Below, piece by piece: positions 5,960 to 53,645 of a DNA stretch of 64,000 bases. The notes under the pieces are model-generated. The model was not told the DNA's origin and did no database searches. It saw only the letters and a list, made by a program, of their open reading frames with translations. Each line of letters begins with the position of its first letter. The first letter of the stretch is position 1. Both the position numbers and the translations under genes were made by a program. The DNA comes from an uncultured Clostridia bacterium (lineage in GTDB: Bacteria; Bacillota; Clostridia; Christensenellales; CAG-917): NCBI GenBank assembly GCA_934233745.1, contig CAKQGN010000001.1:258621-322620 (forward strand), read 5' to 3'.

Positions 5960-6172
5960 AAAAAAATCCGCAATGCCAACAACATTGCGGATATAAAATA
6001 TCGCTCAACGTTGATAGCGCTCCACCTTTAAGGTGACAGTACAACGCATATTCTGCGTTGTCCCAAGAAAGATCGTTTCAGACCAAACAAGTCTTTCTTT
6101 CGGCGGATTTTCCTTTGCCACCGCGACGAAGTCTGCGCCGTCGGCTTATCATAAAATCCGCACCTCTATCGA
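5960..6172 (-). promoter_or_regulatory. lysine riboswitch (L-box) with intrinsic terminator
   Basis: The minus strand reads GATAGAGGTGCGG...GCCGAAAG...TGGGAC...ACTGTCACCTTAAAGGTGGAGCGCTATC. P1 is GATAG/CTATC. The conserved L-box blocks AGAGGUGCG, GCCGAA, CUGUCA and GGAG(A/C)GCU are present. It is followed by the terminator ATCCGCAATG-N7-CATTGCGGAT plus T7 (5961-5992). Confidence 0.8.
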
Positions 6173-6401
6173 GATGATGTACAAAGTTTAGCACGCCGCT
6201 TGCTTAAAGTCCAGCGTTTATGACAAGTTTTTTTCACAAAAAAATATTCTTTTGTCGCTTGCTTTCATGTCGTCATTGCAAAAGTGCGACGACATTGCAT
6301 TGCGACTTGACAAGAAAAGTAACGAAACAAAAATCACAAAAACGCTTGTCTATGTCGCAAAAATGATGTAATATAAGTGAGCAAAACAAATTTAACCTCA
6401 T

Positions 6402-6477
<76 letters not shown>

Positions 6478-6609: not shown

Positions 6610-7761
6610 ATGAAAAAACATTTGTTGAAAATCGCAAGTTTGATATTTGTGCTGGCACTGGTGTTGGCAACGTTTGCGGCATGTTCGGCATCGGGCGGCG
6701 CAGGCGGCGTGGTGGACGCGCTCAACGTCGAGTGCAAAGAGGGTGCAAAGGTCAAGAACTTCATATACGTTATCGGTGACGGGATGGGGCTTGAACACAT
6801 TGCGGCAGGCGCGATGACAAGCGGCGAGGCTTGCACATTCGGGGACTGGAAGAGAGCGTCCGTCAACACGGATTCGCTCACGAGCATCAAGTTCAGAGCG
6901 ACGAAAACAACCGACTCTGCGGCGGCAGGCACTGCGCTTGCAACGGGAGTTCTGACCAAAAACGGGCGCATAGGCAAGGACAAGGACGGCAGGGATACCG
7001 TAACCATTCTTGACGTTGCCAAAAGCAAAGGCAAAGCCACGGGTATCGTGACGTCGGACAAATTGAGCGGAGCAACGCCTGCATCGTTCAGCGCGCACGC
7101 AATGAGCCGCAAGGACACCGACGATATCATTGCAAGCCAAATCAAGTCGGGCGTGGATTTGTTGTGCGGAGCGTCAAGCGACTCTTACGCAAAGAAACAG
7201 GGCAGTATCGAGCAAGAGGGATATGCGTTTTGCAGCGATTTTGGGAGCAGACAAGCCGTGCTTGACGCACAAAAGGCGTACTGTCTGTTCGATATGGGCG
7301 GCAACGGCGGCACGGTGTCTTTGAAAGACGCAAGCAAGTTTGCAATCGACTTTTTAGCAAAGGACGAGGACGGTTTTGTGCTGATGATCGAGCAGGCGCA
7401 CGTTGACAAATATTCGCACAAAAACGACTTCGGCAATATGGTCAAAGCAATGAAGGCACTCAACGATACCATTGCTATGATTCTTGATTGGATAGGGGAT
7501 AGAAACGACACCGCAATCATCGTCACCGCCGACCACGAAACGGGCGGATTGAGCGTGAGCAAGCAAAACAATCTTCCAAACAAGTACGACTCTGCAAGCG
7601 GCACGGTCTACTATGCGTGGGAAAAGAAATCGCACTCCGATTCGGACGTCGGAGCGTTCTTCTTCGGCATCGACTTCAAAGTGGCGGATTATTCCTATTT
7701 CAACTCGGAATTTTTGCTTAAAAACTGCGATATTCCCAAAATCATAAAAGCACATATTTAA
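6610..7761 (+). CDS. alkaline phosphatase family lipoprotein
   Basis: Motifs IGDGMG, TDSAAAGTA (active-site Ser) and TADHETGG. Lipobox LATFAACSA. Confidence 0.9.
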   Translation: MKKHLLKIASLIFVLALVLATFAACSASGGAGGVVDALNVECKEGAKVKNFIYVIGDGMGLEHIAAGAMTSGEACTFGDWKRASVNTDSLTSIKFRATKTTDSAAAGTALATGVLTKNGRIGKDKDGRDTVTILDVAKSKGKATGIVTSDKLSGATPASFSAHAMSRKDTDDIIASQIKSGVDLLCGASSDSYAKKQGSIEQEGYAFCSDFGSRQAVLDAQKAYCLFDMGGNGGTVSLKDASKFAIDFLAKDEDGFVLMIEQAHVDKYSHKNDFGNMVKAMKALNDTIAMILDWIGDRNDTAIIVTADHETGGLSVSKQNNLPNKYDSASGTVYYAWEKKSHSDSDVGAFFFGIDFKVADYSYFNSEFLLKNCDIPKIIKAHI

Positions 7762-19486: not shown

Positions 19487-21340
19487 ATGGCAGACGAAAA
19501 AAGTAAAGCTCCGAGGGCAAAGAGCGGACTCAAAAAAATGGCGAGTTGCGTGGGACAGTACAAAGCTCCCGCGATTTTCACATCGGTTTTGGTTGCGCTC
19601 GAAGTATTGTTTGAAATTTTGATTCCTCTCATCATGGCGCAGATCGTAAACGTCGGCATGGCGGAAAACGCCACGTCTTTTACGTTTACTTTGCAATTGG
19701 GAAGCAAAGGCTTTGAACTTTTTACGATGACAAACCGCATTTGGTTTATCGTAACATGCGGCGCAATGATGGTCGGCATGGCTCTCATATCGCTGTTTTT
19801 CGGCACGATGTCGGGCAGACTTGCCGCTTACGCGTCCACGGGATTTGCAAAGAATCTGCGTCAAAAGATGTTCTACAAGATTGAGAATTTCTCCTTTGCA
19901 AACCTCGACAGATTCAACACCGCAAGCCTTGTGACAAGACTTACGACGGACGTCACAAACATGCAGATGGCGTTTCAAATCATCACTCGTATGCTTGTGC
20001 GCTCGCCCATAATGCTTGTGCTTGCCATGCTTATGTCCATATCGATAAGCCCCGATTTGTCCACGATTTTTGCCGTTGCGATACCCGTTATCGTGATAGG
20101 GCTTGTCATCGGCGTAAAGATTATCTTCCCCAGATTCGAGAAGATGCTCAGAAAGTATGACGATATGAACGAGTCCACTCAGGAAAACCTCATCGGTATC
20201 CGCGCGGTCAAGGCGTTTGTGAGAGAGGATAACGAAATCGACAAATTCAAAAAAGTGAGTTCCACCGTTCAGAAACTGCAGTTTTCGGCGGAAAAAATCA
20301 TTGTTATCGCATTTCCGTTTATGCAAATCGTGGTTTACGCGTGTATGATTTGCGTTGCGTGGTTCGGCGGCAACGATATAATAGTCGGCAAAATGCAACT
20401 CGGCGATTTCACGGCGTTTTTGAGCTACATAATGCAAATTCTCATGTCGCTTATCATGGTTGCAATGGGCTTTATGAACATCGTTATGTCCCGTGCCTCG
20501 CTCGATCGTATCGTTGAAATTCTGGACGAAAAAATCGACATCGAGGACGCACCCGACGCACAGGATATATGCGTCAAGGACGGGAGTATCGATTTTGACA
20601 ACGTAGATTTTTCATATTCTAAATCTCACGACGTTCTCAATCTGGAAAATATCGATTTGCACATTAAAAGCGGTGAAACAATAGGCATCATAGGCGGAAC
20701 CGGCTCGGCAAAATCCACTCTTGTGCAACTTATTCCCAGACTTTACGACGTGCTTGACGGCGAAGTCAAGGTCGGTGGCATAAACGTCAAAGACTACAAA
20801 CTCGAAATGCTCAGAGATTCCGTCGCAATGGTGCTTCAAAAGAACGTACTTTTCAGCGGAACTATAAAACAAAATCTCATGTGGGGCAACAAAAACGCCA
20901 CCGATGAGGAAATCGAACATGCGGCAAAAGCGGCGCAAGCACATGATTTCATTATGTCTTTCCCAAACGGATACCAAACCGAACTCGGACAGGGCGGCGT
21001 AAACGTATCGGGCGGTCAGAAACAACGCCTTTGCATAGCGCGCGCATTGCTTAAAAAGCCCAAAATCATGATTATGGACGATTCGACGTCGGCAGTCGAC
21101 ACTGCAACCGACGCCGCAATCAGAGCGGGACTCAAAAAAGAGTTTGGCGACACAACCGTGCTTATAATTGCTCAACGTATAGCATCGGTCGAGGACGCCG
21201 ATAGAATAATTGTCATGAACGACGGAAAAATCGACGCCGTAGGCACGCATGAGGAGTTGCTTGCCACAAACGAGATTTATCGGGACGTGTATAATTCTCA
21301 AAAGAAAGGAAGCGACGAGGAGGTGAGCGTCAATGCGTAA
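19487..21340 (+). CDS. ABC exporter permease/ATPase, subunit with degenerate catalytic site
   Basis: Six-TM domain plus NBD. Walker A GGTGSAKST, signature VSGGQKQR. Walker B reads IMIMDDSTSAVD, with Asp replacing the catalytic Glu. Confidence 0.9.
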   Translation: MADEKSKAPRAKSGLKKMASCVGQYKAPAIFTSVLVALEVLFEILIPLIMAQIVNVGMAENATSFTFTLQLGSKGFELFTMTNRIWFIVTCGAMMVGMALISLFFGTMSGRLAAYASTGFAKNLRQKMFYKIENFSFANLDRFNTASLVTRLTTDVTNMQMAFQIITRMLVRSPIMLVLAMLMSISISPDLSTIFAVAIPVIVIGLVIGVKIIFPRFEKMLRKYDDMNESTQENLIGIRAVKAFVREDNEIDKFKKVSSTVQKLQFSAEKIIVIAFPFMQIVVYACMICVAWFGGNDIIVGKMQLGDFTAFLSYIMQILMSLIMVAMGFMNIVMSRASLDRIVEILDEKIDIEDAPDAQDICVKDGSIDFDNVDFSYSKSHDVLNLENIDLHIKSGETIGIIGGTGSAKSTLVQLIPRLYDVLDGEVKVGGINVKDYKLEMLRDSVAMVLQKNVLFSGTIKQNLMWGNKNATDEEIEHAAKAAQAHDFIMSFPNGYQTELGQGGVNVSGGQKQRLCIARALLKKPKIMIMDDSTSAVDTATDAAIRAGLKKEFGDTTVLIIAQRIASVEDADRIIVMNDGKIDAVGTHEELLATNEIYRDVYNSQKKGSDEEVSVNA

Positions 21341-23297
21341 AAATACGAAAACCGCACAAGGCAAAAATCCTCAACAAAACAAGTTCAGAGCCAAAAACCC
21401 GATGCAAACCTTAAAGCGTATTCTCGGCTATTGGAAGCCGTTCAAATGTCAGCTTATCGGCGCGCTTTTTTGCATGATTGCAAACGTGCTTTGCAATATA
21501 GCGGGTACGTTCATGCTCGGTTCCGTTGTCGTAAACAACTATATTCTTCCGCTTGCGTACCAGCATGGCGTTTATGTTACGTCAAATGCCGACATAATCG
21601 CAAGGGCGGCGGAGGTTACAATCCAAAGTTTCGGCGGAATTATAGGCGTTATGGCAGCGATGTATGTCGTCGGCGCAGGTCTTCATTATCTTTACAACTA
21701 TATTCTCGTCAGAGTTACGACAAAAACTCTTCAAAACGTTCGTGACGAGATGTTTGAAAAGATGGAAAAACTGCCCATCAGATATTTCGATACTCATACG
21801 CACGGCGATATCATGAGCCTGTACACAAACGACACCGACACGCTGCGCGAATTGCTCTCAAACGGCATTCCCAACCTCATATCGAACTCGCTCACCGTTG
21901 TCGGTATGTTTGTTGCAATGATGCTGGTGTCACCGCTTTTGACGCTTTGTTCTGTCGTGATGCTTGTTATCATGCTCTTTATAATGAAGTTTATCGCAGG
22001 CAAGAGCGGAAAACATTTTGTCGGTCAACAACGCCAGACGGGCGCAATCAACGGCTTTATCGAAGAGCATATAGACGGTCTGAAAGTCGTCAAAGTGTTC
22101 TGTCATGAAGACGAAGAGAAAATCGACTTTGACAAATTCAACGAAGATTTGTTCCATCATTCCGACAAGGCGCACACTTACGCAAACGTCTTGTTCCCGA
22201 TAATGGGCAATCTGTCCTATGTGTCATACGCCGCAACGGCAATTGTGGGTACAATCATGGCAATCGGCGGATTCGGAGGAATGACTTGGGGCGGACTTGT
22301 ATCCTTCATGCAATTCTCACGTCAATTCAGCAATCCGCTCTCGCAAATCGCTCAACAAATGAACGGCGTTCTTATGGCACTTGCAGGCGCGGAGCGTATC
22401 TTTGAATTGATTGACCAACAACCCGAGCAGGACGAAGGCTATGTAACTCTTGTAAACGCAAAAGAGGACGAAGACGGCAACATCGTCGAAACCGATGAAT
22501 ACACCGGCGAGTGGGCGTGGAAGCATTTTCACAAAGCCGACGGCACGACAACGTACGTCAAGTGGAGAGGAGAGGTCGAATTCGAGGATGTATCTTTTGG
22601 GTACGTTCCCGAAAAAACCGTTCTCAAACACGTCACTATGGAAGCGTTGCCGGGACAAAAAATCGCTCTTGTCGGTTCGACGGGTGCGGGCAAAACGACT
22701 ATCACAAATCTTATCAACCGATTCTATGACATCAACGAGGGCAAGATAAGATACGACAACATCAATATAACAAAAATCAAAAAAGACGATTTGCGTCACT
22801 CTATGGCAATGGTTCTTCAAGATACGCACCTCTTCACGGGGACGGTCGCCGACAATATCCGTTTCGGAAAACTGGACGCCACCGACGAGGAAGTCAAAGC
22901 CGCGGCAAAACTCGCAAATGCGGATTACTTTATCCGCCACTTGCCGGAAGGGTATGACACCATGCTTACAGGCGACGGCGAAAACCTTTCGCAAGGTCAA
23001 CGTCAGCTTCTTGCAATCGCTCGCGCCGCAGTCGCAAATCCGCCCGTTCTCATTCTGGACGAAGCGACAAGTTCAATCGACACCCGCACAGAAAAACTTA
23101 TCGAGCAGGGAATGGACAAACTTATGCAAGGTCGCACCGTTTTTGTCATCGCGCACAGACTCTCCACCGTACGCAACTCCGACATGATTTGCGTTCTCGA
23201 ACATGGCGAGATTATCGAGCGCGGCAATCACGAGCAGTTGATTGCGCAGAGGGGGAGGTATTATCAGCTTTACACCGGCGCTTTCGAATTGGAATAA
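21333..23297 (+). CDS. ABC exporter permease/ATPase, subunit with canonical catalytic site
   Basis: Walker A GSTGAGKTT, Walker B LILDEATSSID (catalytic Glu present), non-canonical signature LSQGQRQ. Overlaps the upstream gene by 8 nt. Confidence 0.9.
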   Translation: MRKNTKTAQGKNPQQNKFRAKNPMQTLKRILGYWKPFKCQLIGALFCMIANVLCNIAGTFMLGSVVVNNYILPLAYQHGVYVTSNADIIARAAEVTIQSFGGIIGVMAAMYVVGAGLHYLYNYILVRVTTKTLQNVRDEMFEKMEKLPIRYFDTHTHGDIMSLYTNDTDTLRELLSNGIPNLISNSLTVVGMFVAMMLVSPLLTLCSVVMLVIMLFIMKFIAGKSGKHFVGQQRQTGAINGFIEEHIDGLKVVKVFCHEDEEKIDFDKFNEDLFHHSDKAHTYANVLFPIMGNLSYVSYAATAIVGTIMAIGGFGGMTWGGLVSFMQFSRQFSNPLSQIAQQMNGVLMALAGAERIFELIDQQPEQDEGYVTLVNAKEDEDGNIVETDEYTGEWAWKHFHKADGTTTYVKWRGEVEFEDVSFGYVPEKTVLKHVTMEALPGQKIALVGSTGAGKTTITNLINRFYDINEGKIRYDNINITKIKKDDLRHSMAMVLQDTHLFTGTVADNIRFGKLDATDEEVKAAAKLANADYFIRHLPEGYDTMLTGDGENLSQGQRQLLAIARAAVANPPVLILDEATSSIDTRTEKLIEQGMDKLMQGRTVFVIAHRLSTVRNSDMICVLEHGEIIERGNHEQLIAQRGRYYQLYTGAFELE

Positions 23298-23417
23298 ACG
23301 CACTATTGAGCGAATAACTGCGTCAACACCCTTTTGTTCACCCGTCACGTACACATCAGTACGTTAGGCGGGTTCGCAAAGGGGTGTTTCCTTGTTCTTC
23401 ATCTCAATAGCTCGTTT
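23296..23417 (+). repeat. structured stop-codon-proximal element, copy A
   Basis: Nested helices: AAACGCACTATTGAG/CTCAATAGCTCGTTT, AACACCCTTTTG/CAAAGGGGTGTT, ACCCG/CGGGT, ACGTAC/GTACGT. Starts inside the TAA of the ABC gene. Homologous to 29961-30086. Confidence 0.7.
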
Positions 23418-23698
23418 ATTTATAGTTAAAAAAGGGGCAAGTCCTTGTTTCTCATCTGTTTGCTTTCTGTTATTCCAACTCGAAAGTACGAGTAGCAAGG
23501 GTGTTTCCTTGTTCTTCATCTCAATATTACGTTTATTTACAGTTAAAAGAGGAACAAGCCCTTGTTTCTCATCTGTTTGCTTTTTGTTATTCCAACTCGA
23601 AAGTACGAGTAACAGGGGTGTTTCCTTGTTCTTCATCTCAATAGCGCGTTTATTTATAGTTAAAAGAGGAGCAAGCCCTTGTTTCTCATCTGTTTGCT
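23381..23698 (+). repeat. 117-bp tandem repeat, about 2.7 copies
   Basis: The marker TGTTTCC recurs at 23385, 23502 and 23619 (exact 117-nt period). Units are near-identical, and each contains a diverged half-repeat (GGGGTGTTTCCTTGTTCTTCATCT vs GGGGCAAGTCCTTGTTTCTCATCT). Confidence 0.9.
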
Positions 23699-23703
23699 AA
23701 AAG

Positions 23704-23734
23704 AAAAAATCCGACGCCGAAACGTCGGATTTTT
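23704..23734. terminator. bidirectional intrinsic terminator
   Basis: A-run, ATCCGACG/CGTCGGAT stem, T-run. Confidence 0.8.
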
Positions 23735-23761
23735 GGTGTATTTTTTGTTGTTTTCGATGAT

Positions 23762-24640
23762 TTAATCGATTGATTCGGTATCTTCGGCGATTTGTTCCGC
23801 TTCCTTTTCCGCCTCTTCAAGAGATTGTTCTTCATTCGCGTCATGCGCATCCGATTGCTCGATTTCGCCTGCGGAGTTTTCGTCGAGTTCGACATCCGAA
23901 CTTGCGATTTGTTCGAGATGCTCTTGCTCCTCTTTGAGTTTCGCTTTTTTCTTTTCGCGAACGACTTGAAGAATTGCAAATACTGCGCAAATCGCAATGC
24001 CCACAAACAAATATGCCGAGCCGACGAGCTTTGGCGACGCAAATCCCAAAATAAGCGAGAAGGCGACAATGATGGCAAGCGGGAATACGGCGAGCTTGAT
24101 GTTTTTGACGACGTATTTTCCGCCGAGCGAACCGAATAGCGCATACACGACGCAGGTGAACGCAGGCGTAATCCACGGAGTGTTTTTGATTGCCGTTTCA
24201 ACGTTGCTGACCGCAAGGATAAGCACAAACACCGCGATGATAACCGTTGTCACCAGAGTGCTAGTCGCAACCGAGAGGGTGGACACCACTTCGTTTTCTT
24301 CCGTGCCGAGTTTCGTGCCGCAAATCTCTTGCGCTTTGACGACGCAGGGGATTTTGAGGTTTGAAAGGTTGCCTGTGATAAAGGCAAGGTACGCACTGTT
24401 GATGCCCAGCATCGGGGAATAGATAATGGGTTCGAAAACTCCCGATAAGAAGTTGATAAGGAAGGGGACGATAACCGCAATCGTTCCCATAACGCTCATG
24501 TCGGGTTTGACATCGAAATACAGACATATCGTGGTCGGAACGGCGAAGAAAATCAACATCGCCAAAGCCATCCAAATTTTTCCGATAATGTGTGATTTGA
24601 GGTTGTAATCCATTGTGACTTTTACTTTTTCTTTTGCCAT
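23762..24640 (-). CDS. integral membrane protein of unknown function with acidic C-terminal tail
   Basis: AGGAGG RBS; about 7 predicted TM helices; a 60-aa Glu/Asp-rich tail; 12-nt gap to the upstream membrane-protein gene. Confidence 0.7.
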   Translation of the reverse strand: MAKEKVKVTMDYNLKSHIIGKIWMALAMLIFFAVPTTICLYFDVKPDMSVMGTIAVIVPFLINFLSGVFEPIIYSPMLGINSAYLAFITGNLSNLKIPCVVKAQEICGTKLGTEENEVVSTLSVATSTLVTTVIIAVFVLILAVSNVETAIKNTPWITPAFTCVVYALFGSLGGKYVVKNIKLAVFPLAIIVAFSLILGFASPKLVGSAYLFVGIAICAVFAILQVVREKKKAKLKEEQEHLEQIASSDVELDENSAGEIEQSDAHDANEEQSLEEAEKEAEQIAEDTESID

Positions 24641-25516: not shown

Positions 25517-25802
25517 AAGCAAACTCCTTTTAATGTTATTTTAATATTAGAAACAGTATAAACCACATAATCGCATTGCGCAATATTTTTTTTTGTTGCG
25601 CTGTCCATTTTCTCTTGCAACTGTTTTCGAATGGTGGTAAAATCAAATCAACATCTATGGAAGTAGTAGAAATTGCGCGTTAAGTGCCGTGCGAACGTGG
25701 GGTGTCGGCGGACGAAGAGCTTTGCTCGCGGTGCAATATTCACTCCGGACTTCACATATTACCGAAAGGTTTTTTTGCGAGTGCTTCCAAAGGAGGTGCT
25801 TT

Positions 25803-29466: not shown

Positions 29467-29961
29467 ATGAAAGTTGTCATAAAACAAAAGTATTTTACTG
29501 TCGGCGCAAAATTCGAAATCAAAACCACAGAGGGACAAACCGTGTTTTTTGCCGAAAGGCAGTGGGATAGGTTTATGGGGAACGTCGTGCTTTTTGACAA
29601 GGACGGCACACCCGTTGCACGCATGCAGTCAGAATTTAAGAAGGTGTTTACTTCCTGGTTTTCAATCTCGGATTCGCGCGGCAACGAGGTTTGTTGCATC
29701 AACGAAAAACTACCTTTTCTTTGTTTCCGTCGCGCCGAGTCCTCTCATGGCAATCTGAAAGTAAAAATCAAAGCCGGTCCCTTCCATATGAAGGCTTATT
29801 TGCTTAACGAGCAAGGCAAAACTCTTGCCGTCAAAGCTCGCAAAAAGATTCTTGCCATCCGTGACACCTACATCATCGATATCGATGAAAGCAAGATAAA
29901 CCCTGCCTACGGAGTGTTGGTGGGGGTGTGGTATGATTTGGTCTGTCACCCCTCGCATTAA
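29467..29961 (+). CDS. LURP-one-related / tubby C-terminal-like (DUF567-type) protein
   Basis: 164 aa; repeated beta-strand pattern with the internal hydrophobic segment typical of this family; AAGGAGG RBS. Confidence 0.55.
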   Translation: MKVVIKQKYFTVGAKFEIKTTEGQTVFFAERQWDRFMGNVVLFDKDGTPVARMQSEFKKVFTSWFSISDSRGNEVCCINEKLPFLCFRRAESSHGNLKVKIKAGPFHMKAYLLNEQGKTLAVKARKKILAIRDTYIIDIDESKINPAYGVLVGVWYDLVCHPSH

Positions 29962-30086
29962 AACCGCGCTATTGAGCGAATAACTGTGTCAACACCCCTT
30001 GTCCATCAACTCACGTACGTTTATGTACGTTAGGGTTGCTGTTCAAGGGGTGTTTCCTTGTTCTTCATCTCAATATCGCGGTTTTT
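29961..30086 (+). repeat. structured stop-codon-proximal element, copy B
   Basis: 15/16-bp outer stem (AAACCGCGCTATTGAG/CTCAATATCGCGGTTT), 11-bp AACACCCCTTG/CAAGGGGTGTT, CAAC/GTTG, ACGTAC/GTACGT, then T5. Begins at the last base of the TAA stop. Confidence 0.75.
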
Positions 30087-30651
30087 AACTTCCAAACAAT
30101 GCATAAACAGCGTGAACTCTAATTGCAATTTCCCCTTTCCTCACGTGTTTTCCCTATCACCGTTCCCCCTCTGCGTGCCTTGAGGGAACCCACGGTGACC
30201 GCGTAGCGGGGGACAACACTCAGCACTCGCATAGATTGCTATCGTTCTCTTTTTATGTCACTCGTTCGCGGACGAAAAGAATCCAAACTCGTCCGCTCAC
30301 TTGTACTATACGTCAAGCTCGGCGTTCGCTTCCTCGCCGCCGTTGCGGCTCGTGTTCCGTCTTTTAAGTTGCACATTCCGTGTATAAGTACGCCTTGAAA
30401 GAGTGTTCGTTTATCCGCTTGCGCCGAAGGCGCATCCACCAAGCAGACAATCTTGCGAAACTGCGGCAGGAGTTTTTGTCCCTGCTCGAACTGATAGCAA
30501 AGATTTTCTGCGCGGTAGAAATTGCGAAAACAAGCGAGGTCAGTGGCAACCGCCACTGTGTTTGCGTTTCTATTTAGGGGATTCCCACGTCGCTTTGCTC
30601 CTCTGAATGACAGTTGGGGCGGTTGTCATAACCTAGGCGCCGTTTGAGCAA

Positions 30652-30726
30652 ATATCACTTGCGCAAAGCGCAAATATCACTGTTGCCATAGGCAACAATA
30701 TCACGCACACTTTGTGTGCATATCAC
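30652..30726 (-). repeat. GTGATAT-hairpin array, locus 1 (4 heptamers, 3 hairpins)
   Basis: Minus strand: GTGATAT GCACACAAAGTGTGC GTGATAT TGTTGCCTATGGCAACA GTGATAT TTGCGCTTTGCGCAA GTGATAT. Confidence 0.85.
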
Positions 30727-53558: not shown

Positions 53559-53645
53559 GCGGACATGGCGGAATTGGCAGACGCGTTAGATTCAGGTTCT
53601 AATTTTCGAAAGGAAGTGGAGGTTCAAGTCCTCTTGCCCGCACCA
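53559..53645 (+). tRNA. tRNA-Leu (anticodon CAG)
   Basis: 87-nt class-II tRNA folded by hand. D-arm TGGCGGAATTGGCAGACGCG, anticodon loop TT-CAG-GT, long variable arm, T-loop TTCAAGT, encoded CCA. One A:C mismatch in the acceptor stem (5:68). Confidence 0.85.

Follow-up and report, generated by a model that had tools for sequence, protein, structure and literature searches.

Known palindromic repeats and the present family

Small palindromic repeats are common in bacteria, and their choice of site and their function are mostly unknown. The general kind is well described (REP/REPIN, ERIC, BOX/RUP/SPRITE, miniature inverted-repeat transposable elements or MITEs), and to it belongs the element treated here, of which two copies, A and B, lie in a 64,000-nucleotide stretch (hereafter the window) of contig CAKQGN010000001.1, positions 258,621 to 322,620 of the forward strand, from an uncultured Clostridia bacterium (assembly GCA_934233745.1). 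Copies A and B are members of a large, lineage-restricted and apparently undescribed family of palindromic repeats of uncultured human-gut Clostridia, with a unit of about 125 bp, and what is unusual about this family is its anchoring at stop codons, its inverted copy of the flank and its exchangeable paired middles. The reading that we favour, with about even confidence, is that of a non-autonomous palindromic DNA repeat of the REP/REPIN/SPRITE/MITE kind, which is co-transcribed with the gene in front of it and forms the terminal hairpin of the upstream mRNA.

As judged by analogy, the nearest described element is the SPRITE of Streptococcus pneumoniae, which is about 105 nt long, occurs in tens of copies per genome and has AAAA/TTTT termini (PMC3049150; reviewed in PMC3184786). 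Its predicted structure is a long stem with a U-rich tract behind it. SPRITE lies close to the 3' ends of coding sequences, with 15 of 30 copies between convergent genes, and neither a target duplication nor a matching insertion sequence was found for it (PMC3049150). The present family likewise has a core of 103-106 nt, TAAAA..TTTTA flanks in about half of the loci and a convergent gene next downstream in 33 of 65 cases, and it fits the definition of a SPRITE-like element (PMC3049150), the two being set side by side by description and not by sequence. SPRITE however has a simple 18-bp duplex and comes from a different phylogenetic group, and stop-codon anchoring, a locus-specific inverted flank and subfamilies with covarying middles are not reported for it.

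REP/BIME and REPIN sequences are extragenic imperfect palindromes at gene 3' ends, which are co-transcribed, form hairpins as doublets, are non-autonomous and remain stable at orthologous sites, and the present family is like them in these general features, its co-transcription being predicted. REP units are however 20-40 nt long and carry a conserved GTAG-type tetranucleotide, and the arms of a REPIN are inverted copies of one REP, whereas the arms here differ from each other, are only partly complementary and not self-palindromic, hold no conserved tetranucleotide and have locus-specific sequence in front of them. A RAYT gene was not encountered in about 650 kb of loci (8 kb around each of the copies) and the window, which is the sequence searched wherever gene content is discussed below. 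MITEs such as ERIC, Correia, RUP and bcr1 have a similar size, terminal inverted repeats and subfamilies, fold when transcribed and accumulate in 3' intergenic positions (PMC3184786), and our family resembles them in these respects, its folding in transcripts being predicted. MITEs, however, make direct target-site duplications and occupy many intergenic positions in both orientations, whereas no direct duplication is found here and the element nearly always has one position and one orientation with respect to the stop codon.

The family offers unusually clean rules, namely one position, one orientation, an outer helix of fixed length, exchangeable middles and turnover among the strains of one gut species, and the questions that it raises are whether a selfish DNA palindrome can be recruited as an mRNA 3'-end module or terminator, whether a hairpin containing the stop codon influences translation termination, and whether the complementarity of a palindrome can be kept by templated DNA copying instead of by selection on RNA.

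Extent and composition of the family

Family members were collected by scanning one genome per species for an exact 22-mer of the 3' arm, which yielded 76 loci (numbered with the prefix L) in about 23 assemblies of uncultured gut Clostridia, among them Christensenella sp. UBA6880/UBA7588/UBA7571, uncultured Clostridiales UMGS1170/1042/1043/1331/1366 and Firmicutes bacterium CAG:475. A profile hidden Markov model (nhmmer) built on 65 distinct copies gave 151 matches, 114 of them full length, so that the search for further copies called for by an initial annotation of the window was amply rewarded. Metagenome contigs with the gene in front of copy B are of human gut origin, and none of the viral contigs carried the 22-mer, so that a phage origin was rejected. 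Rfam 15 has no family that matches at the gathering threshold, the only hits being two miRNA hairpin models far below it, and literature searches returned no description of this repeat family.

The unit consists of conserved, asymmetric 5' and 3' arms around a hypervariable self-complementary middle. The arms (TATTGAG..GAATAAC and GTTCTTC..CTCAATA) pair imperfectly and are thus the terminal inverted repeats of a multi-copy, non-coding element shorter than 300 bp. With a covariance model the sense strand reaches 100-150 bits, compared to 35-55 bits for its complement. By their middle parts the copies form 42 clusters, of which the largest comprises 22 copies in 10 genomes with at most 5 per genome, and other subfamilies have different yet complementary terminal helices (CCAAATCG../..CGATTTGG, CCAAACAG../..CTGTTTGG, CTATTTGG..). 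Subfamilies, tandem arrays, truncated copies and variation within species are all features of the family, and no multi-copy, transposase-like ORF (open reading frame) family was present in the loci or the window.

Two further modules accompany some of the elements. In L097 a hairpin module of 53 nt (GGACGCGATTGACGCAAGCGTAACAATCGCTATTCCGTCACTTCGTTCCTTAC, about 1240-1295) sits within the 5' internal loop of the element and is missing at the same site in L096 and L098, which are from near-identical strains; it also occurs in L011, L037, L073, L075 and L099, and in some elements only. A conserved hairpin-rich sequence of about 190 nt (GTGACAAACGGTCGCTGTGGCAATGG...GTTTGTCAC...; for example L065 659-850) is found in L031, L039, L057, L062, L064 and L065, where several arrays end distally in a fusion of this sequence with a solo 5' arm; the sequence has no Rfam match.

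Position behind genes

The element varies little in its position and orientation. Directly behind a same-strand ORF of at least 80 codons stand 74 of the 114 full copies, the distance from the first stop-codon base to the conserved core being mostly 8-12 nt, while 21 are inner members of arrays and most others follow an element of another subfamily or a short ORF; the supposition that all copies abut stop codons is accordingly true of the majority but not of the array members and their like. Among the first set of 69 copies, 71% stood behind an ORF of at least 100 codons as against 4.8% of random positions, and an opposite-strand ORF ended at the 3' side of only 1.4% of copies compared to a background of 4.8%. 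At the convergent gene pairs of L056 and L070 each gene has its own inward-facing element, and the orientation is therefore set by the gene and not by the replication fork. The share of convergent genes next downstream (33/65) looks high for adjacent bacterial genes, a comparison made with general expectation and not with a computed baseline.

The genes in front are unrelated to each other and are syntenic core or housekeeping genes, including groEL, mreB, recR, obg, argS, ychF and that of fructose-bisphosphate aldolase (fba), and furthermore hypA, ypeB and the genes of aspartokinase and ABC transporters. Their stop codons are TAA in 62 cases, TGA in 12 and TAG in none, compared to approximately 214 TAA, 297 TGA and 62 TAG for other long ORFs of the same loci. 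Reading of the sequence places stop codons in all three frames within the first 30 nt of the element, and in L106 (about 1190-1215) and L002 (minus strand, about 2540-2565) an ORF enters the core and ends at the TGA inside TATTGAG, there being no flank helix at these two sites. The possibility that the element delivers the stop codon was rejected because the protein ends at the same residue in relatives that are free of the element, although the excess of TAA and the TGA found in the element-free sister group leave it some probability. Sense orientation, the fixed spacing to the stop codon and conserved unpaired bases (see below) say that the element is tied to gene expression, be it by the way it arrives or by local tolerance or usefulness.

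The two copies in the window

Copy A (23295-23420, plus strand) is located directly behind an ABC exporter gene, the second of two such genes (21333-23297, plus strand, from the ORF list; Pfam ABC_membrane and ABC_tran), whose TAA stop at 23295-23297 is included in the 5' strand of the outer helix (TAAACGCAC, 23295-23303). The core of 106 nt (23304-23409; covariance model R1, 138 bits on the plus and 49 bits on the minus strand) is made up, in order, of the 5' arm TATTGAGCGAATAACTGCGTCA, the variable helix ACACCCTTTTG/CAAAGGGGTGT, the stem CCCG/CGGG, the bases TCA, the apical CGTAC-loop-GTACG and the 3' arm TTCCTTGTTCTTCATCTCAATA. The 5' flank pairs with the 3' flank strand (GCTCGTTTATT, 23410-23420, plus strand), which has no run of four or more T; two pairs of this outer helix are broken in the window, whereas it is perfectly paired in the orthologue of copy A in Firmicutes bacterium CAG:475 (L032). 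The 3' arm of copy A also opens a plus-strand tandem array of 2.7 units of 117 nt (23382-23698; TRF, 92% matches; direct-repeat family D1), the remainder of which consists of the 3' halves of truncated or other-subfamily elements. Since the orthologous site in CAG:475 (L032 1330-1395) holds a single unit, the array of the window is a recent local expansion. Between the array and a convergent gene (23762-24640, minus strand) a classic intrinsic terminator (AAAAAATCCGACG..CGTCGGATTTTT, 23700-23745) can be read from the sequence, and its hairpin is also present in L032.

Copy B (29959-30086, plus strand) is directly behind a gene for a LOR-domain protein of 164 residues (29467-29961, plus strand; ORF list and Pfam) with its TAA stop at 29959-29961. 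This gene is the last of a folate operon, which is headed by a THF riboswitch (25660-25753, plus strand; Rfam RF01831, 54.9 bits) and continues, by Pfam assignment, with folC-like, folE, folP, folB/folK and the LOR-domain gene, copy B being situated at the operon end. All parts of the copy are on the plus strand. Its 5' flank strand (TAAAACCGCGC, 29959-29969) includes the stop codon and is followed by the 106-nt core (29970-30075; 147 bits on the plus and 54 bits on the minus strand with the same model), in which the 5' arm occupies 29970-29991 and the 3' arm 30054-30075, the variable helix is formed by 29991-30001 with 30044-30054, the stem CAAC/GTTG by 30007-30010 and 30035-30038, and the apical stem by 30014-30018 with 30025-30029 around the loop GTTTAT. 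The 3' strand of the outer helix then runs into T residues (TCGCGGTTTTT, 30076-30086), which together with the hairpin gives a terminator-like shape.

The copies are 84% identical across 165 aligned columns. The window contains exactly two occurrences of the 5'-arm 18-mer CTATTGAGCGAATAACTG and, with at most one mismatch allowed, four of the 3'-arm 29-mer GGGGTGTTTCCTTGTTCTTCATCTCAATA, none being expected by chance in either case. Predicted RNA folds reach -54.4 kcal/mol for copy A (z -8.9) and -57.7 kcal/mol for copy B (z -10.1), compared to about -24 kcal/mol for dinucleotide shuffles, and the reverse strands fold equally well. The initial annotation had the two copies in their right places, each overlapping a TAA stop, and was likewise right about the shared blocks, the differing apical loops and the stems, including CAAC/GTTG in B versus CCCG/CGGG in A. 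To this can be added the tandem array opened by copy A and an outermost helix that is non-homologous between the copies (AAACG/CGTTT in A, AAACCGCG/CGCGGTTT in B). These are the only full copies in the window; a candidate third copy on the minus strand (7361-7436, 27.5 bits with the covariance model) lies inside a long ORF (6610-7761, plus strand), lacks the middle part and was judged to be a chance match. A readthrough peptide and an antisense mini-ORF were also considered and were discarded on reading the sequence, the frames being different between the copies and no ribosome-binding site being present.

A proposed co-transcribed DNA palindrome

If the element is a DNA repeat of the kind that we favour, its upkeep would take place mainly at the DNA level, where gene conversion between copies and tandem duplication would homogenise the family and the 5' flank would be the model on which the 3' flank is rewritten, through intrastrand template switching at the hairpin, template switching being a known mutational route. 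Because it is sense-oriented and directly follows the stop codon, the element would be transcribed as the last part of the mRNA and fold into a hairpin of about -55 kcal/mol, which would shield the mRNA 3' end from exonucleases. Copy B and about half of the stop-adjacent copies have a U-run behind the hairpin, which in these cases would also serve as an intrinsic terminator.

What happens at orthologous sites is in general agreement with such a repeat. All relatives of the copy B gene with at least 73% protein identity have an element on the stop codon, often of another subfamily, and the element is also present in one group at 55% identity, whereas the groups at 57% and 46% are free of it; in these the protein ends at the same residue and the stop codon is followed, after about 25-70 nt, by a classic terminator. 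Known empty sites are limited to distant relatives, and among 82 arrays with both flanks there is no empty orthologous site among the loci, the sole difference being the number of units. Within one species (proteins 98-100% identical) the copy B site has 1-3 units in four arrangements, namely one unit, one unit of the CCAAATCG type in front of it, two such units in front, and two copies of the resident unit joined via a piece of the other type. The loci L089-L095 and L105, which correspond to 29959-30086 of the window, include a recombinant that combines the flank AACTTCC with a 3' arm from a different subfamily, and the apical stem of the resident unit exists in two allelic forms, which differ on both sides (CACGTAC..GTACG versus CATGTAC..GTACA) and can share one array. 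Across species the middle part is swapped within a constant flank at orthologous sites, and several orthologous pairs that agree in middle type have 95-100% identity in the element but only 46-59% at the fourfold sites of the upstream gene.

Copy B, with CGCGG followed by T5, probably terminates the folate operon, since no further classic terminator follows it in the window and its element-free orthologues have an ordinary one. The hairpin of copy A can at most protect the 3' end, and may be without effect, because it has no T-run and is followed by a terminator of its own. The suggestion that copy B could be an elaborate terminator is plausible, while copy A is not of this form, and it was a fair remark that its helices are more than termination needs, copy A being followed by the separate terminator at 23700-23745. 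In a crude scan a classic terminator was rarely found downstream of copies without a U-run.

Several points nonetheless weigh against the palindrome reading. Template switching at these elements is inferred, and transcription, termination and stabilisation are likewise deduced from sequence. Only about half of the stop-adjacent copies have a U-run behind them, and whether they do shows no relation to genomic context, which means that termination is not the common denominator of the family, and copy A has its separate terminator. The invariance of the 3' arm is in part an artefact, since the loci were gathered by an exact 22-mer of that very arm. Furthermore, a purely selfish repeat leaves the strict gene-sense orientation, the narrow spacing of 8-12 nt and the excess of TAA unaccounted for.

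An outer helix made from the end of the gene

The flanks beyond the core are reverse complements of each other and their sequence is specific to the locus. The outer helix measures 11.5 +/- 2.1 bp (31 independent loci), has the stop codon at its outer end and shows no correlation between its length and stop-codon distance (r = 0.08). The flanks are TAAAA(C/T)..GCGC / GCGC..TTTTA in about half of the loci, and in about 40% they are gene-specific and without a T-run, for example GTGAGAGAA/TTCTCTCAC, AATGTAAGCCG/CGGCTTACATT and ATTGAGCGCA/TGCGCTCAAT. Three loci have 22-25 nt of the coding 3' end as an inverted copy, and an insertion of 3 nt in the 5' flank of L023 has its mirror image in the 3' flank. 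Flank changes at the copy B site are paired across species (CCGCG/CGCGG, CCTTG/CAAGG, CTGCG/CACAG), the 5' flank being TAAAACCGCA, TAAAACCTTG or TAAAACTGCG, each with its matching 3' flank. Either something has copied the 5' flank in inverted form or the pairing of the flanks is kept by selection. Insertion into the loops of pre-existing terminators was rejected as a general rule, since terminator stems fail to explain the roughly 40% of loci whose helices are made of coding bases and the stop codon and are without a T-run.

Is pairing kept at the level of RNA or DNA?

The covariation check shows strong maintenance of pairing. In the alignment 94.3% of cells are paired, compared to 74.2% in shuffles and 36-46% in controls with slid partners, two-sided changes account for 481 cells against 153 in shuffles (none of 500 shuffles reaching 481), and double changes are seen in 25 of 39 pairs. 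The compensatory changes noted in the initial annotation are consequently real, but they are not by themselves a demonstration of RNA structure. Mismatches are A:C in 25 cases and G:U in 14 for distinct variable helices, and A:C in 28 and G:U in 14 for distinct flank helices, so that G:U is not favoured over A:C as the tolerance of a sense-RNA helix would have it, and paired alleles occur within a species. One-sided wobble changes are furthermore rare relative to two-sided ones. The block-wise allelic changes, the swapping of middles, the pattern of A:C and G:U and the rarity of wobble point to processes at the DNA level, such as gene conversion and templated correction of the palindrome, and the equal folding of both strands is a further sign of this. 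There is a practical warning in this, namely that strong covariation in a repeated palindrome is no proof of a functional RNA.

The foremost alternative is that the element is a selected cis-acting RNA of the 3' untranslated region (3'-UTR), which would work with the terminating ribosome or with a dedicated RNA-binding protein. With the stop codon in the A site the 11-bp flank helix would be melted, the core hairpin left intact and the 3' flank strand freed, and this could tune termination, mRNA decay or cutting by RNase III. Such a role would account for the strict sense orientation and for the spacing of 8-12 nt to the stop codon, which we take to match the reach of the ribosome's mRNA channel, and it is in agreement with the compensatory changes that preserve the flank helix at the copy B site, with the conservation of the unpaired bases GTCA, TCA and TTCCTT, and with a conservation of the element far above that of synonymous sites. 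It is in poor agreement, however, with the lack of preference for G:U, with the dozens of middle variants, the truncated copies and the arrays, with associated genes that share nothing and with the absence of a relative in Rfam, and as paired changes come as blocks within a species, the covariation need not imply selection on RNA. We consider a cis-acting RNA unlikely on the whole, though it retains an appreciable probability.

Possible inverted target copying, transposition and recombination

The locus-specific outer helix also admits a different notion of how the element arrives. Its route to the gene end would depend on recognition of the stop codon or of the point where translation or transcription finishes, and about 11 nt of the target would be copied there in inverted form, with no direct duplication, possibly by hairpin-primed fold-back synthesis during copy-choice insertion. 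An inverted target copy would be a new target-site signature and a new way of homing to gene 3' ends; we hold this to be unlikely, with a probability that is small without being negligible.

Direct target duplications, on the other hand, are not in evidence, since the longest repeat at the boundaries is distributed as in shuffled pairs (22 independent loci), and copies at random positions flanked by target-site duplications were not observed. The family is thus not a plain MITE, and of the three candidates originally put forward (an sRNA derived from the 3'-UTR, a protein-binding RNA and a small non-autonomous mobile element that targets stop codons) the last fits best, with this qualification. 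It could still be a classical MITE that is moved in trans by a transposase encoded elsewhere, for example an IS630/mariner-type enzyme whose TA duplication merges into the palindrome, with insertions surviving only at gene ends. The terminal inverted arms, small size, many copies and subfamilies would all suit a MITE, the commonest flank class (TAAAA..TTTTA) is compatible with a palindromic TA duplication of 2 bp, the same AAAACCGCGC motif precedes array-internal copies that are behind no gene, and the stop codons in all three frames near the start of the element are also of a kind with this explanation. It is nevertheless made improbable by the outer-helix boundaries, where direct repeats do not exceed chance, by the roughly 40% of loci with gene-specific flanks, no TA at the boundary and TGA stops among them, and by the failure to find a multi-copy ORF family in the loci and the window. 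Moreover, survival alone predicts many copies elsewhere in intergenic DNA, and such copies are not seen.

Integron attC sites, 57-141 nt long, are imperfect palindromes whose ends are conserved and whose paired centre varies; they have extrahelical bases and are found directly behind an ORF in fixed orientation, often with the stop codon in the outer repeat. The overall anatomy of our element is like this, and it might accordingly be a recombination site of folded single-stranded DNA, comparable to attC or to the attachment hairpin of CTX phage, which a tyrosine recombinase or an HUH enzyme would use with the conserved bulges as strand markers. In addition to the imperfect palindrome of about 105-125 nt with its conserved ends, self-complementary variable centre and extrahelical bases, and to the position, orientation and stop codon, the slight excess of A:C on the sense strand would fit, as it corresponds to G:T on the other strand. 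However, the genes in front (groEL, mreB, recR, argS) are syntenic core genes and not promoterless cassettes, the outer repeat is locus-specific instead of a conserved RYYYAAC/GTTRRRY pair of core sites, and neither an integrase, a cassette array nor any recombinase gene recurring near the copies was seen in the loci and the window. The housekeeping genes and the non-conserved outer repeats rule out an integron attC site proper, and a recombination site of the wider kind is very improbable.

Least credible is a small RNA derived from the 3'-UTR, with the hairpin excised from the mRNA and acting in trans, for although a stable hairpin at the mRNA 3' end is at hand and the hypervariable helix could in principle carry specificity, that variable segment is sequestered in a 10-12 bp helix and there are tens of copies per genome with many private variants.

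Other features of the window and the assemblies

The window also contains a lysine riboswitch (6007-6176, minus strand) and tRNA genes at 6402-6474 and 53559-53642 (both plus strand). Immediately 3' of copy B is another multi-copy repeat, about 300 nt long (30110-30415) and without an Rfam match, which is 75-93% identical to sequences in more than 30 of the loci, occurs in both orientations and is often found 10-400 nt downstream of the hairpin elements. At 30647-30720 (minus strand) there is a sub-threshold match to the Gut-1 RNA (RF01706; 37.2 bits against a gathering threshold of 50, E = 1.2e-5), which is cut by the edge of the searched stretch.

Bins labelled Phascolarctobacterium succinatutens, Butyrivibrio crossotus, Bacteroides sp. 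and Anaeroplasmataceae contain orthologues 90-99% identical to those of 'Christensenella sp.' bins, together with the same repeats (loci L003, L004, L008, L017, L020, L049, L060 and others), and the names of these bins are probably wrong. The repeats break short-read assemblies of this abundant uncultured gut lineage, and contigs often end 30-90 nt past the stop codon, inside the element, as in L077-L079, L084 and L086.

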